Source: Squalus acanthias
Taxonomy: Eukaryota
DNA: 64,000 bases
NCBI GenBank assembly: GCA_030390025.1
Contig: CM059432.1
Location: 48,424,001-48,488,000, forward strand
Reading direction: 5' to 3'
A program made the translations under genes and the position numbers. Below are positions 37,420 to 61,470 of the stretch, one piece after another (the first letter of the stretch is position 1; the number at the start of each line of letters is the position of its first letter). Below the pieces are notes generated by a model. It did not search any database and was not told the DNA's origin. It worked only from the letters and a program-made list of their open reading frames with translations.

Positions 37420-39577
37420 CATGAACGCATCACCACGGAAAGGATGGCAACCTCCTTGGAAAGGATGGCTACCTCCATGGTAAGGATGGCTACCTCCATG
37501 GTAAGGCTGGCTACTGTAGAGGAGAGGATAGCTATGGTAGAGGAGAGGATGGTTACGTCCCTCTCTCTCTCTCTCAGGCAGTCCCTCGGAACCGAGGATG
37601 ACTTGCTTCCACATTAAAAATGAGTTCTCAGGTGACTGATGAGTCCAATGCGGGACCTACAGTCTCTGTCACAGGTGGGGCAGACGGTGTTGAAGGGGCA
37701 GGTGGGTGGGGTGCTTGGGTTGACGTGCGCTCCTTGCGCTGCCTGCGCTTGGCTTCCGCTTGCTCCCGGCAAAGAGACTCGAGGTGTTCGGCGCCTTCCC
37801 GGATGCTTCTCCTCCACTTTGTGCGGTCTTGGGCCAGGGATTCCCAGGCGTCGGTGGGGATGTTACACTTTTTCAAGGAGGCTTTGAGGGTGCCCTTGAA
37901 GTGTTTCCTCTGCACACCTGGGGCTCTCTTGCCGTGCCGGAGCTCCGAGTAGAGCGCTTGTTTTGGGAGTCTCGTATCGGGCATGCGGACAATGTGACCC
38001 GTCCATCGGAGCTGATCGAGCGTGGTCAAAGCTTCGATGCTGCGGATGCTGGCCTGAGCAAGAACACTGACGTTGGTGCGCCTATCCTGCCAATGGATTT
38101 GCAGGATCTTGCGGAGGCAGCGTTGGTGGTACCTTTCCAGTGCTTTGAGGTGCCTGCTGTACATGGTCCATGTCTCTGAGGCATACAGCAGGGCGGGTAT
38201 CACTGCTGCTCTGTAGACCATGAGCTTAGTGCCGGGTTTGAGGTCCTGGTCTTCAAACACTCTCTTCCTCAGGCGACCGAAGGCTGCACTCGCACACTGA
38301 AGGCGGTGTTGGACTTCGTCGTCGACTTCTGACCTTGTTGACAGTAGGCTCCCGAGGTATGGAAAGTGGTCCACGTTGTCCAAGGCCTTGTCGTTAATTT
38401 TGATAATCGGGGGGCAGTACTGTGTGGCGGGGGCAGGTTGGTAGAGGACCTTTGTCTTACGGATGTTTAGTGTAAGGCCCATGCTCTCGTACGCTTCGGT
38501 GAAGGTGTTGACGATGGTTTGCAGTTCGACCTCCGAGTGAGCGCAGACGCAAGCGTCGTCTGCATACTGTAATTCGACGACAGAGGATGGGACGACCTTG
38601 GATCTGGACTGGAGGCGACGGAGGTTGAACAGTTTCCCGTTGTAAATTAGCTCCACTCCAGTGGGGAGCTTACTGAGGGTGAGATGGAGCATTGCAGTAA
38701 GGAAGATCAAGAAGAGCGTTGGTGCGATGACACAGCCTTGCTTGACCCCGGTTCGTACGTGAATTGGGTCTGTGGTGGAACCGTTGGTCAGGATCACGGC
38801 TTGCATGTCGTCATGAAGCTGGCAGAGGATGGTGACAAACTTTTGAGGGCAGCCGAATTTGCGGAGGACACTCCATAATCCCTCACGGTTGACAGTGTCG
38901 AAGGCCTTTGTGAAATCAAAGAAGGTCATGTACAGCGGTTGGTGCTGTTCCCTGCATTTCTCTTGTAATTCACGTGCGGTGAAGATCATGTCCATGGTGC
39001 CCCTTAGTGGGCGGAATCCGCATTGCGACTCTGGGAGGAACTCTTCAACCACTGGGAGAAGGCGATTGAGGAGGATTCTTGCGACGACTTTCCCTGTGGC
39101 AGACAGCAGGGAAACTCCTCTGTAATTACCGCAATCGGACTTGTCACCTTTCTTGAAGATGGTCACAATTACAGCATCTCTGAGATCCCCTGGCATGCTC
39201 TCCTCCTTCCAGGTAAGAGAAATTAGTTCATGAATTCGCACCAGTAGTGCTTCTCTGCCATGCTTTAGTGCCTCGGTGGGGATTCCATCTGCTCCTGAGG
39301 CCTTGTTGTTCTTCAGTTGTCGGATGGCCTTTTCAACCTGGGGTTGTGCTGAGATGGTGGCAGGTAGCATGCTGCGGGATGGAGTTGAAGACACTCGCGT
39401 CGAAGACAGAGTCGCAGTTAAGGAAATCTTCGAGGTCATGAACGCATCACCACGGAAAGGATGGCAACCTCCTTGGTAAGGATGGCTACCTCCATGGTAA
39501 GGATGGCTACCTCCATGGTAAGGCTGGCCACTGTAGAGGAGAGGATGGCTATGGTAGAGGAGAGGATGGCTACGTCC
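37420..39577 (+). repeat. 141-bp direct repeat (37420-37560 / 39437-39577) containing a 21-bp minisatellite
   Basis: Direct comparison shows 4 mismatches; the copies exactly abut both ends of the RTE. Confidence 0.95.
37561..39436 (-). mobile_element. RTE-clade LINE, 5' truncated, RT ORF open for about 580 codons
   Basis: KASGADGIP, QCGFR, GVKQGCVIAP, YADD and FPYLGS motifs; (GA)n tail. Confidence 0.96.
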
Positions 39578-40351
39578 ATGGAGGAGCTTAGTCGCCAGGG
39601 TATGGAAAACATGGTAATTGTTCAGAATAGACTGACATCTCTTGAGGAGCGATGGTCAGCTATTGAGCAAACAAACCAGACCTTCATGCAAGTCCTCTGG
39701 AGTAGGACTTCCAGTGCAGAAACGGGTCGTCATGGCCCCCCTGCAGTGCAGCAAGGTGCTGTCCAGCCACTTGCTAGCTCTGAAGTGGGGCTGACACATG
39801 AGAGGGATGTTGGTGGCATACAACAAGGAAGTGGGGGCTCCTCTCCAAGCGCTCACACGACCATGCCACTGCAGAGCCCTCGGTCAGAGCCCCACCAAAC
39901 TGAGATCGGCGTCTCAACCCCTGCACAGCCGCAGGAGCAGCAGACTGTTGCCGAGCCCTCACAGGTTCGCAACCCCAGAGGACGCCCGCCAAAGGTGTCG
40001 AGACAGGAGCAGCAAGAAAGTGAGCAAGGGGCCTCCACATCTGCTGAAGCACCACGTAGGAGCACGCGTAAGAGGAAGATAATGCACAAGTAGTCACAAG
40101 GATAGTCACTTGGGTGTAATGTTGTGTTTAATTTTGAAAAGCCATCAGTTGCTTATTGTCATAAAAAATTCTGATGGCAAACTGTTGCAGTTGTGGCATG
40201 TGTCATTTCGCTAATGGGACTTCCACATTGAGGGCTTAGGGCGACTTGCAATTGTCAGTATGGTGGTCAGAGTGATAGGAATCCGCTGGTCCTTGGCCAT
40301 TGTCGATGGTCTGATAAGAAGCTGCGAGGCAAAAGTGTTTGATTGTGCAGG

Positions 40352-40548: not shown

Positions 40549-43500
40549 CTAGGAGGAAAGGAAATAAATGGTTCCAATGCTTCTGGTATATGCCTCAGTT
40601 GAGGAAGCGCTCAGTCAAGGTGGCGAGAGGGGTTTCCCAGGAGGTCACACTGGACATGGGTGTCAGGCTCCAAACTTCCACAACAATGGGTATGCCTGTT
40701 AAAAGTTCCCCCAGACCTCAGACAACAAACTTCTGCCACCTGCAAATGATGATTGCTGAAAACTCCTTTTTAATGGTGGAGCTGCAGCTGTTAGTAAGCA
40801 ATCCACTCGTGAGGCCGCCAGGATTCACTGGCGTGTTCCAGAGGAGACGTGCAGGACGTGGGAAAAGTGGTAAAATCAGAAAGGCCTCTCAAAATGGGAT
40901 TATAGAGGCACTTAACTGGTTGTTAAGGGCCTTAAGGGCCTATCCCGCCTCTTGGAGGCGGGATGGAAATGGGGTCAGAAAACACACATTTAGGAAATTT
41001 GCTCGGAGGCGGGATCGGGCCCACCCGCCATTTTTTGCGATTTTACCACCTCACACGCTTCCAATCCCGCCTCCTTGGGCCTGGCAAAATCGAGCCCTAT
41101 CAGTCAGGAGAAGGGGGCAGGCAGGTAGTCAGGAAAGCCCCAGAGTGCATCTCACTCGACAACCGTTGGAAAATGGGGAAAGTGACGGTTCCTCTGGGGA
41201 GTGCAGCCAGAGCCAAGTTCACGGCACTGTGGGTGGCTCAGCTGCACAAGGGGGGAGGAGTAAGAGTGGAAGGGCAATAGTGGTAGGAGACTCAATAGTG
41301 AGGCGTGCAGACAGGCGTTTCTGCGGCCGCAGACGTGACTCCAGGATGGCATGTTGCCTCCCTGGTGCCAGGGTCAAGGATGTCACTGAACGGCTGCAGG
41401 ACATTCTGAAGGGGGAGGGCGAACAGTCAGAGGTCATGGTTCACATTGGTACCAACGACATAGGTAGAAAGAGGGATGAGGTCCTGCAACAAGAATTTAG
41501 GGAGCTAGGTAGCAGATTAAAAAGCAGGACCTCAAAGGTTGTAATCTCTGGATTACTCCCGGTGCCACATGCTACTGAGTATAGGAATAGGAGGATAGAG
41601 CAGATGAATGCGTGGCTAAAGAGTTGGTGCAGGAGGGAGGGCTTTAGTTTCCTGGATCACTGGGTCTGTTTCTGGGGAAGGTGGGACCTGTACAAGTCGG
41701 ACGGGTTGCACCTGAACCGGAACGGGACCAACATCCTTGCGGGGAGGTTTGCTAGTGCTGTTGGTGGGGGGGGGGTTTAAACTAACTTGGCAGGGGGATG
41801 GGATACGGAGTGGAGCTATAGTAGGAGGTGATGCACAGCCAAATATATAGAGGAAAAAACAAGTCAGTCTGGAAGGCAGAACAAATATGTAACAGCACAA
41901 GGGAGTATGGCAAGGCTGGATGGCATTTATTTTAATGCAAGGAGTCTTGCAAGATGAATTGAAGGTGTTGATAAACACATGGGAGTATGATATTGTTGCT
42001 ATCACAGAGACATGGTTGAGGGAGGGGCAGGACTGGCAGCTCAATATTCCGGGGTATAGAATCTTCAGGCGAGACAGAGGGGGGTGTAAGAGGGGGTGTC
42101 GCAATATTAATCAAGGAGTCAATTACTGCAGTAAGGAGGGATGATATCTTAGCAGGTTCCTCTAATGAGGCCATATGGGTAGAACTTAAAAACAAAAAGG
42201 GGGCAGGCACTTTGCTGGGAGTGTACTATAGGCCCCCAAACAGTCAGGGGGAGATAGAGGAACAGATATGTAGGCAAATCTCAGAGAAGTGTGGTAATAA
42301 TAGTAGGGGATTTCAACTTCCCCAATATTAACTGGGATAGTCAGAGTGTGAAAGGCTTAGAGGGTGCGGAATTCTTAAAGTGCATCCAGGAGAGCTTTTT
42401 GAGCCAGCCTGTAGAAAGTCCTACAAGAGAGGGGGCGGTACTGGACCTAATTCTCAGGAATGTAGCCAGGCAAGTGGTAGAAGTGTCAGTAGGAGAACAT
42501 TTTGGTGACAGTGACCATAATTCGGTGAGATTTAAGGTAGTCATGGAAAAGGACAAAGATGGACCGGAAATAAAGGTTCTAAATTGGGGGAAGGCTGATT
42601 TTAATATGATAAGGCAGGATCTGGCCAAAGTAGACTGGCATCAGCTACTTGTAGGAAAATCCACATCAGAGCAGTGGGAGTCATTCAGAAAGGAAAGAGA
42701 GTACAGCGCCAACATGTTCCTGTAAAGGTCACGGGTGGGACCAACAAGTCCAGGGAACCCTGGATGTCAAGGGATATACAAGAATGGATTAGGAAAAAAA
42801 GGGAGGCTTTTGGCAGATACAAAGGACTAAAAACAGTGGAAGCCCTAGAGGAGTATAGAAAGTGCAGTGGGGGGGCACTTAAAAAAGAAATTAGGAGAGT
42901 GAAGAGGGGGCATGAAAAAACACTGGCAGGCAAAATAAAGGAAAATCCCATGGTGTTTTATAAGTATATTAAGGGCAAGAGGATAACCAGGGAAAGAGTA
43001 GGGCCCATTAGGGACCAAAGTGGCAATCTGTGTGTAGAGCCGGAAGATGTAGGTGAGGTTTTAAATGAATATTTTGCATCTCTGTTCACTATGGAGAAGG
43101 ACGATGTAGGCATAGAAATCAGGCAGGGGGATTGTGATATACTTGATAAAATTAGCATTGAGAGGGAGGAGGTACTAGCGATTTTAGTGGGCTTAAAAGT
43201 GGATAAATCCCCAGGCCCAGACGAGATGTATCCCAGGCTGCTGTGTGAGGCAAGGGAGGAGATTGCAGGGGCTCTGACACAAATTTTCAGAACCTCTCTG
43301 GCCACAGGGGAGGTGCCAGAGTACTGGAGGACAGCTAACGTAGTACCATTATTCAAGAAGGGTAGTAGGGATAAACCAGGGAATTACAGCCCAGTGAGCC
43401 TAACATCAGTGGTAGGGAAATTATTGGAAAAAATTCTGAGGGACAGAATTAGTCTCCACTTGGAGAGGCAAGGATTAATCAAGGATATTCAGCATGGCTT

Positions 43501-45924
43501 TGTCAGGGGGAGATCATATCTAACCAATTTGATTGAATTTTTTGAGGGGGTGACTAGGTGTGTGGATGAGGGTAGTGCAGTTGATGTAGTCTACATGGAC
43601 TTCAGTAAGGCTTTTGACAAAGTCCCGCATGGGAGACTGGTCAAGAAGGTAAGAGCCCATGGGATCCAGGGCAATTTGGCACATTGGATCCAAAATTGGC
43701 TTAGTGGCAGGAGGCAGAGGGTGATGGTCGAAGGTTGTTTTTGTGACTGGAAGCCTGTGTCCAGTGGTGTACCGCAGGGATCGGTGCTGGGTCCCTTGCT
43801 GTTTGTAGTGTACATTAATGATTTAGATATGAATGTAGGAGGTATGATCAGTGAGTTCGCAGATGACACGAAAATTGGTGGGGATGGTAAATAGCGAGGA
43901 GGGAAGCCTCAGGCTACAGGACGATATAGACGGGTTGGTCAGATGGGCAGAACAGTGGCAAATGGAATTTAACCCTGAAAAGTGTGAGGTGATGCATTTT
44001 GGGAGGACTAACAAGGCAAGGGAATACACAATGAATGGTCGGACCCTAGGAAGGACAGAGGATCCTTGGTGTGCATGTACATAGATCCCTGAAAGCAGTA
44101 GGACAGGTAGATAAGGTGGTTAAGAAGGCATATGGGATACTTGCCTTCATTAGCCGAGGCATAGAATATAAGAGCAGGGAGGTTATGATGGAGCTGTACA
44201 AAACGCTAGTTAGGCCACAGCTGGAATACTGTGTGCAGTTCTGGTCGCCACACTATAGGAAGGATGCGATTGCATTAGAGAGGGTGCAGAGGAGATTCAC
44301 CAGGATGTTACCTGGGCTGCAGCGCTTCAGCTATGAAGAGAGACTGAACAGGCTGGGGTTGTTTTCCTTAGAGCAGAGAAGGCTGAGGGGGGACCTGATT
44401 GAGGTGTACAAAATTATGAGGGGCATAGATAGGGTAGATAGAAAGGAACTTTTCCCCTTAGTAGAAGGGTCAATAACCAGGGGGCATAGTTTCAGGGTAA
44501 GGGGCAGGAGGTTTAGAGGGGATTTGAGGAAAAACTTTTTCACCCAGAGGGTGGTTGGAATCTGGAACTTACTGCCTGAAAGGGTGGTAGAGGCGGGAAC
44601 CCTCACAACATTCAAGAAGCATTTAGATGAGCACTTGAAACGCCATAGCATACAAGGCTACGGACCAAGTGCTGGAAAATGGGATTAGAATAGATCGAGC
44701 TTGATGGCCGGCGCAGACACGATGGGCCGAAGGGCCTCTTTCTGTGCTGTATGACTCTATGACTATATTTTTGACCTTCTGAAACCTAGGTTCTCGAGTC
44801 TTTGTGCCAACTTGTTTAAAATACAAAATTACTCCAGCACCATCACCGCATCAATGGATTTCCGAATTGAATCCGCGCCCCATCCCCACCCCATATCTGA
44901 TGTTTTTGGAATAAAAGGAACATGAAGCAACTAAGACTGTATGGGAAATGTTCTGTGCCCACCCACCAGTCCCAACACAAGTGGAGCTGCAGACAGTGTT
45001 GATTATACCTCACCGTGGCACACAACTAGTCCATGCAGTGGCTTCTCTTACAAAAGGAAGCTGGAACAACAGACCAGATAGCACGGCTATGATATTTGAA
45101 TGCTTAACTTGGCGTATGTTTGAAATGGTAAAGGTGTTAGCATAGTTCAATAGTGATAACTTTGTCTAGACATCTGAATTTTTGATCCTCGGCAATGTAT
45201 CTATATCACATGTATGTTTTAATTTAAAAAGAGAAAAATATTTCTGACTTATATAAAATGTAACCATTATCAGTTTTAGTACATTTTCAAAATTAAATGA
45301 ATCAAAATGCAGTAAATCCACAGCAGCAGAAAATTACTTTGTGTCTAGTTCATATATAGTCAAGATAAGCATTTTTAATAAGTTTATAACTTTGCATTTT
45401 AATAACTTATATAATTAGCATTCAGAATAAAAGGTAATGAACAGATCTTAACTGCAAGGCCTAAAGATGAAAGAGCTTGTCTAGGAGCTCACATTCAGCC
45501 TCTAAATATTTCTGATGGGATTCATACAATACATACTGAATAGATTTGCTGAAACTGCACAAATTTAGAAGTGGAAATGAATATTAATTCTGTGATACAA
45601 ACTTTCTTCAAAACCAGCACTGTATTGCATTAGCTAATCCACTAGCCGTAATCTCGATGGATTGACTTCTCATTAATAATTAGGATTTTCAGCTTCAGCC
45701 AGGCATAAATCAATATGTAATTAAACTTTAAAAACCCCCACTTTGTTACAGTTTAATTTACAACGTAAAACATCTTCCTTTCTTTTACTAGAAAGGATGC
45801 AAAGATAACTTTGTCTCAGTTGTAATCTAACATTAGAATTTCAGCAATCATATTACTAAAAAATGAATAAATACAGTACTCAAATCGCTTGATCAGATGT
45901 CACTATACCAGTGAGCTTCAATTT

Positions 45925-58964: not shown

Positions 58965-61470
58965 AGCCCTAGATGTTTTCTATTACAGGAAACTTTCGTT
59001 TATCCGGCACCCAAATATCCGGAATTCTCGCTTAACCGGCAAAAATCATCCTCCGAAAACTCCTCTCAAATAACCGGCAATGTTGCCGAGTCGCAGTCGA
59101 GTCTCCGCGAACGCCGAGTGCTCCGAAAACTCCTCTCAAATAACCGGCAATGTTGCCGATCCTGAGTCCGAGTCCGAGAACGCCGATTTAGTCAGTAGGG
59201 GTACTTTTCAAAAGTGCCACTACTCGGCCTCCTGGCGCTGTCGGAAGTCCGAAACACTGCAGTAGCAGGAGTTGATTCTCCCGCGCTGCCTGGAGTCTCT
59301 TTGTTAAAAATAGCCTCGGTAGATATAACTCTCCGTTATCCGGTACTTTCGATAAACCGGCACCACGCCGGTCCCGTCGATGCCGGATAAACGAAAGTTT
59401 CCTGTACATCATTGAATAAGGATTCCATTATCTTTCCTACCACCGACATGAAGCTAATTGGGCTATAGTTCCCTGGACTTGTTCTATTTCCCTTTTTAAA
59501 TATAGGAATCACATTATCTGTTTGACAGTCCTCTTCTATCTTAAATGTCTTTATATCTTTTTTGATCTCTTCTTCTAATGTCATATCCATCATGTTAGTC
59601 TCCCTGGTAAATACCGAGGCAAAGTAACTATTTAATATTTCTGCCATTTTGCTATTATTACCTGTGAGTTTATTGTGTGTATCCCTTAGTGGTCCTATCC
59701 CTATTTTTCTTTTGTTGTTTATGAGTCTGTAGAATAATTTTAAATTTCTTTTTATATTCCTTGATAATTTAATTTTGTAGTTTCTCTTTGCCTTCCCAAT
59801 TGTTTTTTTTTACTTCTTTCCTAATATTTTCCTATTCCCTTTTGTCATCCTCTCCTTTGTATACTTTTTTCTTTAGTTTCAAGTTTGCCCTTATTTCTTT
59901 ATTCATCCGTGGTGTGTTATTACTGGCTACTTTGTTCTTGCTTTTTGGTGGGAGATATTTCTCTTGGAATCTACTGACCACCATTTTAAATATTTCCCAC
60001 TGCTGTTCTATGTCTATGTTTGTCAGTAAATGTTTCCAGTTTACTTTCCCAGTTCCATTCTCAGACCCTTAAAATCAGCTTTTTTCCAATTTATTACTTT
60101 GGTCTTTATCTGAATCTTTATCTTAAACCTTATTATGCCGTGATCATTATTGCCTAGATGTTCTTCGCTTGTCTTTTCTGGTTTATTTCCCATGACTAGA
60201 TCCAGCAGTGCTCCATCTCTAGTTAGGCTTTTTACATACTGGATAAGAAAGGAGTCCTGTACAACTGTAAAAACTCCATTCCTTGTATCCCTTTCGCTTC
60301 TTCTTGCCAATTCATTTGGGGGTAGTTAAAATCTCCCATGAAGATTATTCTATATCCTTTACTCATTACACATATTTCTTCCTCCACCTCCTTTCCACGA
60401 TTAGGTGGTCTATAGTATACCCCTATTAGCGTGACCGATCCCTTCCTATCTTTTATTTCAATCCATATGGATTCTGTTTCTAACCTTCTGTTCGTTATGT
60501 CCCTTTTTTCTACTGCCATTATGTTGTCTCTAGCACAGGTATCCCACCCCCTTTTACCATCCCTATCCTTTCTGATTATGTGATAACCTGCAATATTTAG
60601 TTGCCAGTCCTGTTCTTTATGTAGCCATGTTTCAGTTACTCCTCCTACATCTGGTTCCTCGCCACGGATTATTGCCTCCAGTTCCCCCGTTTTATTCTGG
60701 ATGCTGTGTACATTGCTGTACAGGCAGTTTGTCTTTAATAACTGTTACTTTTACTTTATTTTTAACAGTTCTTTTATGCTTCTGTTTTATAACTGTATTT
60801 GTTCCCTGACCGTTTATGTTACCCTTGTCCCTTATCTTGGTCTGACCATTACTCTCATCTCCTATTTCTTTTATCTTCGGACTTAGGTTATTTTCAGCAG
60901 ATCCCTCTCTCCGGCTTACTAGTTTAAAGTCCTATCGACAGCCCTATTTGTCCTTTCCACTCCAGTCAGGTGGAGCTTGTCCCAGTGGTACAGCTCCTTC
61001 CTGTCCCAGTATTGGTGCCAGTGTCCCATGAAATGGAACCCCATCTTCCCACACCAGTCTTTCAGCCACGCTGTTTTTTAAATTTGGTACCGAACTTCTG
61101 ATATTCCCTTAGCAGGACCTCCTCTCTTTTCTTCCCTATGTCAACTGGATCTTCCCCCTCCCTTTCCAAATTCCTCTCCAGTTGCTCAGAGATATCCTTT
61201 ACCTTTGCACCAGGTAGGCAACACACCCTTCTGGAGTCTCAGTTGCTACTGCAGAGGATGCTATCTATCCTTCAAATTATCAAATTCCCAATGACTGCAA
61301 CCTTTCTATTTTGCTCTTTGGCCTGCCTCCTGCTCCACGGTGCTATGGTTAGCATTCTGGCTGTCCATCCCGCAGCCTACATCCTTATCCTCACAGGTAG
61401 CAAGTATATTGTACCTGTTGGACAGGATCAGTGTCTGCAGGACCTCATTCTCTATTTTCCCTTACCCTGC
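58965..61470 (-). mobile_element. Old CR1 5' half (ORF1 esterase, spacer, EN, start of RT)
   Basis: Degenerate CCLPGAK-like and GLHL-like ORF1 motifs; CLYSN, GVYYRPP, MGDFNYP and LDLVM EN motifs. Confidence 0.88.
58986..59404. mobile_element. Second copy of the pogo/Tigger-like MITE, opposite orientation to 47572
   Basis: TIRs CAGGAAACTTTCGTTTATCCGGCA; TA TSD. Confidence 0.9.

Follow-up and report, generated by a model that had tools for sequence, protein, structure and literature searches.

CR1 LINEs whose ORF1 encodes an esterase probably express their second gene by programmed -1 ribosomal frameshifting at the heptamer T_TTA_AAC, which would join ORF1 and ORF2 in one protein. We infer this slippage from the layout of the junction in CR1: the heptamer stands in phase at the end of ORF1, is conserved at synonymous sites and is followed by an open linker of variable length, with no conserved AUG and with a G-tract at +11. 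Most ribosomes would terminate after Leu-Asn at the ORF1 stop, which directly follows the heptamer as it does in Rous sarcoma virus. A minority would shift back from UUA-AAC onto UUU-AAA and continue in the -1 frame, giving a transframe protein with the sequence ...Leu-Asn-Leu or ...Phe-Lys-Leu. The product of the slip would be an ORF1-linker-endonuclease-reverse transcriptase fusion, and the slip rate would set a low ORF2:ORF1 ratio similar to that of Gag-Pol.

The junction in the window

The window is a 64,000-nucleotide stretch of the Squalus acanthias genome (contig CM059432.1, positions 48,424,001 to 48,488,000 of the forward strand). It holds a decayed CR1 copy (Table 1) that is ~95% identical across 3.7 kb to siblings L171, L172 and L210, and whose closest named ORF1 homologues, 63-78% identical, are from sharks and rays. 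The copy displays the canonical CR1 traits: an SGNH esterase in ORF1, an APE endonuclease followed by a reverse transcriptase in ORF2, and a tail without poly(A), with short tandem repeats at 44745-44768 and in the tails of siblings. PMC13343379 and PMC3905857 describe the same architecture for canonical vertebrate CR1. Besides the domains, the junction matches CR1-labelled entries in the part of the PMC13343379 table compared by eye.

Table 1 Features of the window bearing on the ORF1-ORF2 junction.
Feature	Position	Strand	Remarks
Decayed CR1 LINE copy	41101..44768	+	5' limit possibly 40815, where the L209 alignment begins
ORF1 SGNH/GDSL esterase domain	41283..41726	+	PF13472, E 4e-15
DGLHLN motif in the ORF1 esterase domain	41700-41717	+	
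G run of unstable length, ten G	41766..41775	+	Throws ORF1 of this copy out of phase
Heptamer TTTAAAC, candidate -1 shift site	41776..41782	+	T_TTA_AAC in in-phase siblings
TAA, ORF1 stop of the family	41783..41785	+	TAA or TAG in 11/11 lineages
GGGGGATGGG tract, candidate linear 3' stimulator	41793..41802	+	Begins 11 nt past the heptamer
-1-frame linker to the endonuclease	41786..41933	+	Disrupted here by an additional TA; stop TAG 41848-50
ATG, nine codons upstream of N of NARS	41907..41909	+	Favourable Kozak context (A at -3, G at +4)
Fragmented ORF2 with APE endonuclease and reverse transcriptase	41934..44688	+	PF14529 E 1e-9, PF03372, PF00078 E 5.5e-25
3' tail with short tandem ...CTATGACT... 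units at its end	44689..44768	+	No poly(A)
Same heptamer, ACT TTA AAC TAG, as found in family B, another and older CR1 family	60922..60928	-	

The original prediction held that ORF1 ends on the heptamer. The heptamer and the TAA after it are in place, but ORF1 of this copy has already ended by then: its own frame reads ...AVGGGGV and stops at TAA 41778-80, inside the heptamer. The predicted need for a length correction in the ten-G run is borne out, since the distance from the DGLHL codon to the heptamer is 76 here and most commonly 71 in the family. Read from 41776, the sequence gives FKLTWQGDG...QPNI as described, and the G-rich tract downstream of the stop is present. TTTAAAC is not enriched over chance in the window (21 matches against 14.6 expected, a count reached in 6 of 100 shuffles). 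Thus the window copy by itself shows little: it is a dead relic with its frameshift signal out of register, and what exceeds chance is the position of the heptamer, its phase and its conservation across lineages.

Two open frames lie upstream of the element. One of 675 codons at 37628-39655 on the minus strand carries reverse-transcriptase motifs (YADD) and belongs to a different LINE, which we take by resemblance to be RTE/BovB-like. The other, of 223 codons at 39422-40093 on the plus strand, has repeated MATSMVR-like units and then a coiled-coil-like and Q/P-rich stretch.

Phase of the heptamer in sibling copies

From the 3.7-Gb genome, the best 40 of 2182 and the best 40 of 2934 candidates were scored, so all copy counts given here are samples. 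Thirty loci were chosen with an ORF1-only query that left the junction out. The distance from DGLHL codon to heptamer is 71 in 13 of the 28 loci having a junction (range 69-93), and at this distance ORF1 ends GGT TTA AAC TAA. With the window copy removed, 16 of 27 siblings are in phase and 6 and 5 fall in the other two phases, a scatter caused by the varying length of the G run. Of 26 loci where it could be measured, 21 have a heptamer-to-NARS distance of 156 nucleotides, a spacing that places ORF2 in the -1 frame. For the window copy the corresponding value is 158, against 156 in 26 of 30 loci, in agreement with the extra TA proposed for its linker. Both length differences are private to this copy.

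Wider searches gave 146 distinct copies in 150 loci, which were sorted into eight lineages, with eight unclassified copies left out of the lineage counts; part of this set was found with queries ending in Leu-Asn and is biased toward intact ends. The exact 7-mer is present in 122 of 138 copies with a detectable junction, where detection allowed two mismatches. The distance of 71 recurs in 49 of 54 copies from the six lineages that lack the long G run, as well as in all 30 copies from lineages that have GAG in its place. The family thus carries an in-phase X_XXY_YYZ heptamer, which the window copy does not.

Lineages ending in Gly-Leu-Asn have a second canonical heptamer, G_GGT_TTA (in in-phase siblings, at the place of 41773-41779), which overlaps the first, lies one codon upstream and opens into the same -1 frame.

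The linker and the start of ORF2

The endonuclease motif is in the -1 frame in 88 of 127 copies, 75 of them open. For the window's own subfamily the corresponding counts are 60 of 70 and 55, and its linkers contain 6 stops in the -1 frame versus 242 and 73 in the other two. The old family B has kept the -1 frame in only 5 of 23 copies, its commonest distances being 218, 217 and 214, none a multiple of three. Eleven representative linkers, the best-preserved copies chosen for being in frame, measure 105, 141, 147, 156, 156, 171, 180, 195, 204, 219 and 225 nt, all multiples of three. Their sequences are basic, of low complexity and mostly unrelated between lineages; two of the 11 contain one stop, and shuffling leaves the frame open with a probability of 0.002-0.11 per linker. 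Of 22 in-phase copies, 17 have a -1-frame stop five codons upstream of the heptamer, and 17 of 19 family B copies have it one codon upstream, which limits entry into the ORF2 frame to that short stretch.

These features also bear on the strongest alternative, termination-reinitiation, by which ORF2 would be restarted at a non-AUG codon (the CUA overlapping the stop, in the manner of AUG in AUGA) or at an AUG before the endonuclease and be made as a separate protein, as in L1 and SART1. The ATG at 41907, raised as a caveat in the original prediction, does exist: it is specific to the window's subfamily, of which 59 of 60 in-frame copies carry it, and its context is good. As an objection it is weakened by the sister subfamily (88% identical), whose linker is 15 nt shorter and lacks a Met in all 8 in-frame copies. 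Two further lineages have a Met 8 codons before the N of NARS, so an AUG 8-9 codons before NARS occurs in 3 of the 8 own-genome lineages, the window's included; D204, B and three metagenome elements have no fixed Met near the endonuclease start. No AUG in this region is conserved across lineages, and none overlaps or adjoins the ORF1 stop in the 11 lineages compared, save a Met at linker codon 4 in a single H156 copy. An AUG start would moreover free the 43 codons upstream of it, yet those stay open. A restart close to the stop would likewise keep the linker open and could use CTA, invariant in the -1 frame because the ORF1 stop is always TAA or TAG. There is precedent in SART1 (PMC10275272 and PMC3894237), and AUG-independent initiation is favoured for mammalian L1 in PMC5009743. 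Reinitiation gives no reason, however, for a fixed synonymous T_TTA_AA upstream of the stop, and we consider it unlikely.

Conservation of the heptamer across lineages

We compared 11 lineages, related to one another, of which eight are from the S. acanthias genome and three from metagenome contigs. ORF1 ends in T_TTA_AAC followed by TAA or TAG in all 11, and the base before TTA is T whether the codon it closes encodes Gly, Asp, Thr, His or Tyr. The two leucines of DGLHL use five and four codon types in the same lineages, against the invariant TTA. From ORF1 background usage (TTA 14/81, AAC 15/32, third-base T 203/793) the combination is expected with a probability of ~0.02 per independent lineage. 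The heptamer therefore appears to be conserved beyond the needs of the protein, with the caveats that the lineages are related, that codons 16 and 18 likewise keep an invariant third base and that Asn 6 is AAC in 8 of 8.

A metagenome pattern that fixed only DGLHL..G and Leu-Asn-stop matched 20 stretches. Three are LINEs (L091, L093 and L107), all with T_TTA_AAC_TAG and an open, Met-free -1 frame leading into the endonuclease motif C-x-Y-x-N-A-R/K-S. The other 17, some of them duplicates, never have TTTAAAC; all use AAT, and three read TTTAAAT. By its match to the protein P0031, L093 is sturgeon-like; L091 and L107 are far more divergent. One of six GTDB matches is a short CR1-like contig carrying the same site, and none of 26 pattern matches in viral contigs is a relative. 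DNA sampling outside the S. acanthias genome thus comprises four elements and the supplement of PMC13343379. Within the first 400 letters per entry of that supplement, TTTAAACTA is found in 23 entries, which by eye are 12 clear junctions, 5 probable ones and 6 sites elsewhere; this search reports presence, not frequency. The entry codes of the clear junctions, as we read them, denote alligator, crocodile, chimaera, stingray, sawfish, catshark and dogfish. Rows 12, 891 and 896 of the same part of the supplement include a Crack-labelled entry with the same junction after an esterase-like sequence, and two dogfish-coded CR1 entries that also have TTTAAACTA in the 5' leader.

At the protein level the DGLHL motif is present in 128 of 190 homologues, 104 of which end in Leu-Asn, exactly 26 residues from the D in 91; those with this ending range from sharks to frogs, turtles and a hummingbird. 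Among 78 distinct ends, Q, E, K, M or W stands directly before Leu-Asn in 2; the counts for the two positions preceding that one are 42 and 30, but positions -6 and -7 hold almost as few of these residues (3 and 5 of 78). The ORF1 proteins P0101, P0159 and P0164 end in Glu-Leu-Asn, and Glu codons cannot supply the first T of the heptamer; the two near-identical ends of this kind hint at a lineage in which the site was altered or lost. Vertebrate-type CR1 ORF1 also occurs in records labelled as bacterial (P0003, P0036 and L216, under Pseudomonas, Proteus and Jeotgalibacillus), which likely reflects assembly contamination.

The prevalence of the Leu-Asn ending could mean that this C-terminus is kept for the esterase protein itself, its codons being shared by descent or for another nucleic-acid role, with ORF2 expressed by an unrelated route. 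The relatedness of the own-genome lineages and the two other invariant third positions fit such a constraint, as do the Glu-Leu-Asn ends. Against it, the same seven bases recur in the three distant metagenome elements, whose ORF1 ends otherwise share little, and the lengths and openness of the linkers would need a separate explanation; we regard this account as improbable.

The remaining alternative, that ORF2 is framed at the RNA or DNA level by polymerase slippage on the G run or by splicing into CAG/G or TAG after the heptamer, draws on the widely variable G run of two subfamilies, on in-frame ORF1-ORF2 fusion copies (distances 72, 75 and 78) and on the likeness of CTAAC...CAG/G to the consensus of a branch point and acceptor, but is about as improbable, given the distance of 71 in 49 of 54 copies of the six lineages that lack a long G run, a branch-like motif that lies just ~7 nt before the AG and lacks a pyrimidine tract, and the absence of the CAG from family B and L093. 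This explanation and the protein constraint fit the data worse than frameshifting and reinitiation. Four contig sets that we guess to be RNA showed GT..AG ends at none of the 15 joints listed, with a further 32 unlisted; a two-base difference at 41843 is found in three of the sets and absent from one, and loose ends behind 41803 occur in three. Such contigs cannot show strand, level or translation, and we give them no weight. In both G-run subfamilies, copies with longer runs (L168, L119, L153, L162 and L165 among them) have ORF1 and ORF2 in one frame, with open frames of 904-1280 aa.

Frameshifting thus remains the preferred reading. On all three points at which computation could have contradicted the original prediction, the result went its way: ORF2 is in the -1 frame relative to ORF1 in siblings, TTA, AAC and the T ahead of them in the heptamer resist synonymous change between lineages, and 55 of the 60 in-frame copies of the window's subfamily have an open -1 frame. 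Frame, heptamer conservation and open linker together support its proposal of an ORF1-ORF2 fusion, with the frameshift itself as the probable cause.

A G-tract downstream of the heptamer

GGGGG occupies +11 to +15 after the heptamer in 106 of 135 copies, or 100 of 111 outside family B, where it is at +11 in 6 of 24 and the G run mostly begins at +10. The tract is also present in L093 and, at +9, in L216, and by eye GGGGG lies at +11 in six entries of the examined part of the PMC13343379 supplement, crocodilian and chimaera codes included. Two of its bases are third positions of -1-frame codons and are kept in 9 of 11 lineages, which points to a role at the RNA level.

A local stem-loop or pseudoknot was considered and rejected for the vertebrate-type lineages: the downstream fold is not above shuffles in the window (z -0.51, 0.93 and 0.28) or in the eight lineages (z -1.16 to +1.11), and a search of Rfam gave 0 matches. 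L091 has, in place of the G-tract, a 9-bp hairpin with its main stem from +11 (z -3.58), and L107 a weaker hairpin (z -0.18). Pairing of the G-tract with the element tail was rejected as well, since the best duplexes about equal those of control 20-mers of the same G content (-14.7 kcal/mol for the window copy against a control mean of -15.8), in a set where 31 of 41 stretches had a scorable end and some ends belonged to neighbouring elements. Recurring distant partners, at ~+1445 and -430, fall on conserved coding motifs, and their scores do not exceed those of flanking DNA. When a two-tier quadruplex is allowed, it is predicted in seven of eight own-genome representatives with a gain of just 0.1-4.8 kcal/mol, and is not predicted in L093, L091, L107 or L216; we treat it as a possibility, not as evidence.

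Structural stimulators lie 5-9 nt from the shift site and those linked to trans-acting factors 11-15 nt, according to PMC5009743. That the G-tract acts as a stimulator, as a protein-binding site or a two-tier G-quadruplex and not as a pseudoknot, is a tentative proposal that we hold at less than even strength. The parallel of its spacing with protein-stimulated viral frameshifts is a lead, not a test.

Comparison with known systems

The nearest precedent among LINEs is found in the Dictyostelium elements TRE5-A and TRE3-A, which need a -1 frameshift for ORF2 according to a legend in the review PMC5911963. The mechanism thus has a precedent in LINEs. Like CR1 these are APE-type non-LTR elements; they differ in clade, in ORF1 and in their amoeba host.

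PMC5009743 counts U_UUA_AAC among the most shifty heptamers, and describes two viral systems that resemble the CR1 junction. The coronavirus 1a/1b site of IBV shares the heptamer, its phase and a polymerase downstream in the -1 frame; CR1 differs in that no pseudoknot or stem-loop was detected 5-9 nt downstream in the vertebrate elements, and in its immediate stop. In the arterivirus PRRSV, CCCANCUCC lies 11 nt 3' of a shift site stimulated by nsp1beta/PCBP. CR1 has a similarly short, linear, homopolymer-rich motif at a fixed distance, GGGGG(A/T)TGGG from +11, which is G-rich where that of PRRSV is C-rich and is a candidate stimulator. Mammalian L1 and silkworm SART1 share with CR1 a bicistronic LINE RNA and low-level ORF2; they use reinitiation or stop-start coupling to make a separate ORF2 protein, whereas CR1 has a slippery overlap.

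Our search of the open literature found no report of frameshifting in CR1. A turtle CR1 paper reportedly described an element with a short ORF overlap, and frameshifting may have been suggested for it earlier. The word "frameshift" is absent from the main text of PMC13343379 and PMC3905857, where the junction signal goes undescribed, and CR1 is mentioned 0 times in the first 300,000 of the 449,034 characters of the frameshifting review PMC5009743.

Implications for CR1 biology

How the second gene of LINEs is translated was called an open question in PMC3894237, and it is L1 and SART1, with their separate ORF2 protein, that supply the accepted answers. CR1-group elements are the dominant retrotransposons in most vertebrate species, according to PMC13343379. 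The broken copy in the window gives a view of a genuine signal with deep conservation, whose fixed candidate shift site offers one short, exact sequence open to testing.

A broader picture, doubtful as a whole, would have the dominant LINE of most vertebrates produce reverse transcriptase in the manner of a retrovirus, as an ORF1-ORF2 fusion, through a -1 shift that has persisted from invertebrate-like relatives to birds. In vertebrate CR1s a linear G-tract 11 nt past the heptamer, bound by protein or folded into a natural G-quadruplex, would stimulate the shift, having replaced an ancestral hairpin at the same position, and would give the host or ORF1p a switch for retrotransposition. If the G-tract is a stimulator, it would add a new signal class; in 2016, PMC5009743 described the natural use of G-quadruplexes as "not currently known". 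If frameshifting is indeed the mechanism, CR1 ORF2 would be a Gag-Pol-like fusion carrying a coiled coil and an esterase, ORF2 annotations that start from the first ATG would be wrong, and cis-preference and particle assembly would need rethinking.
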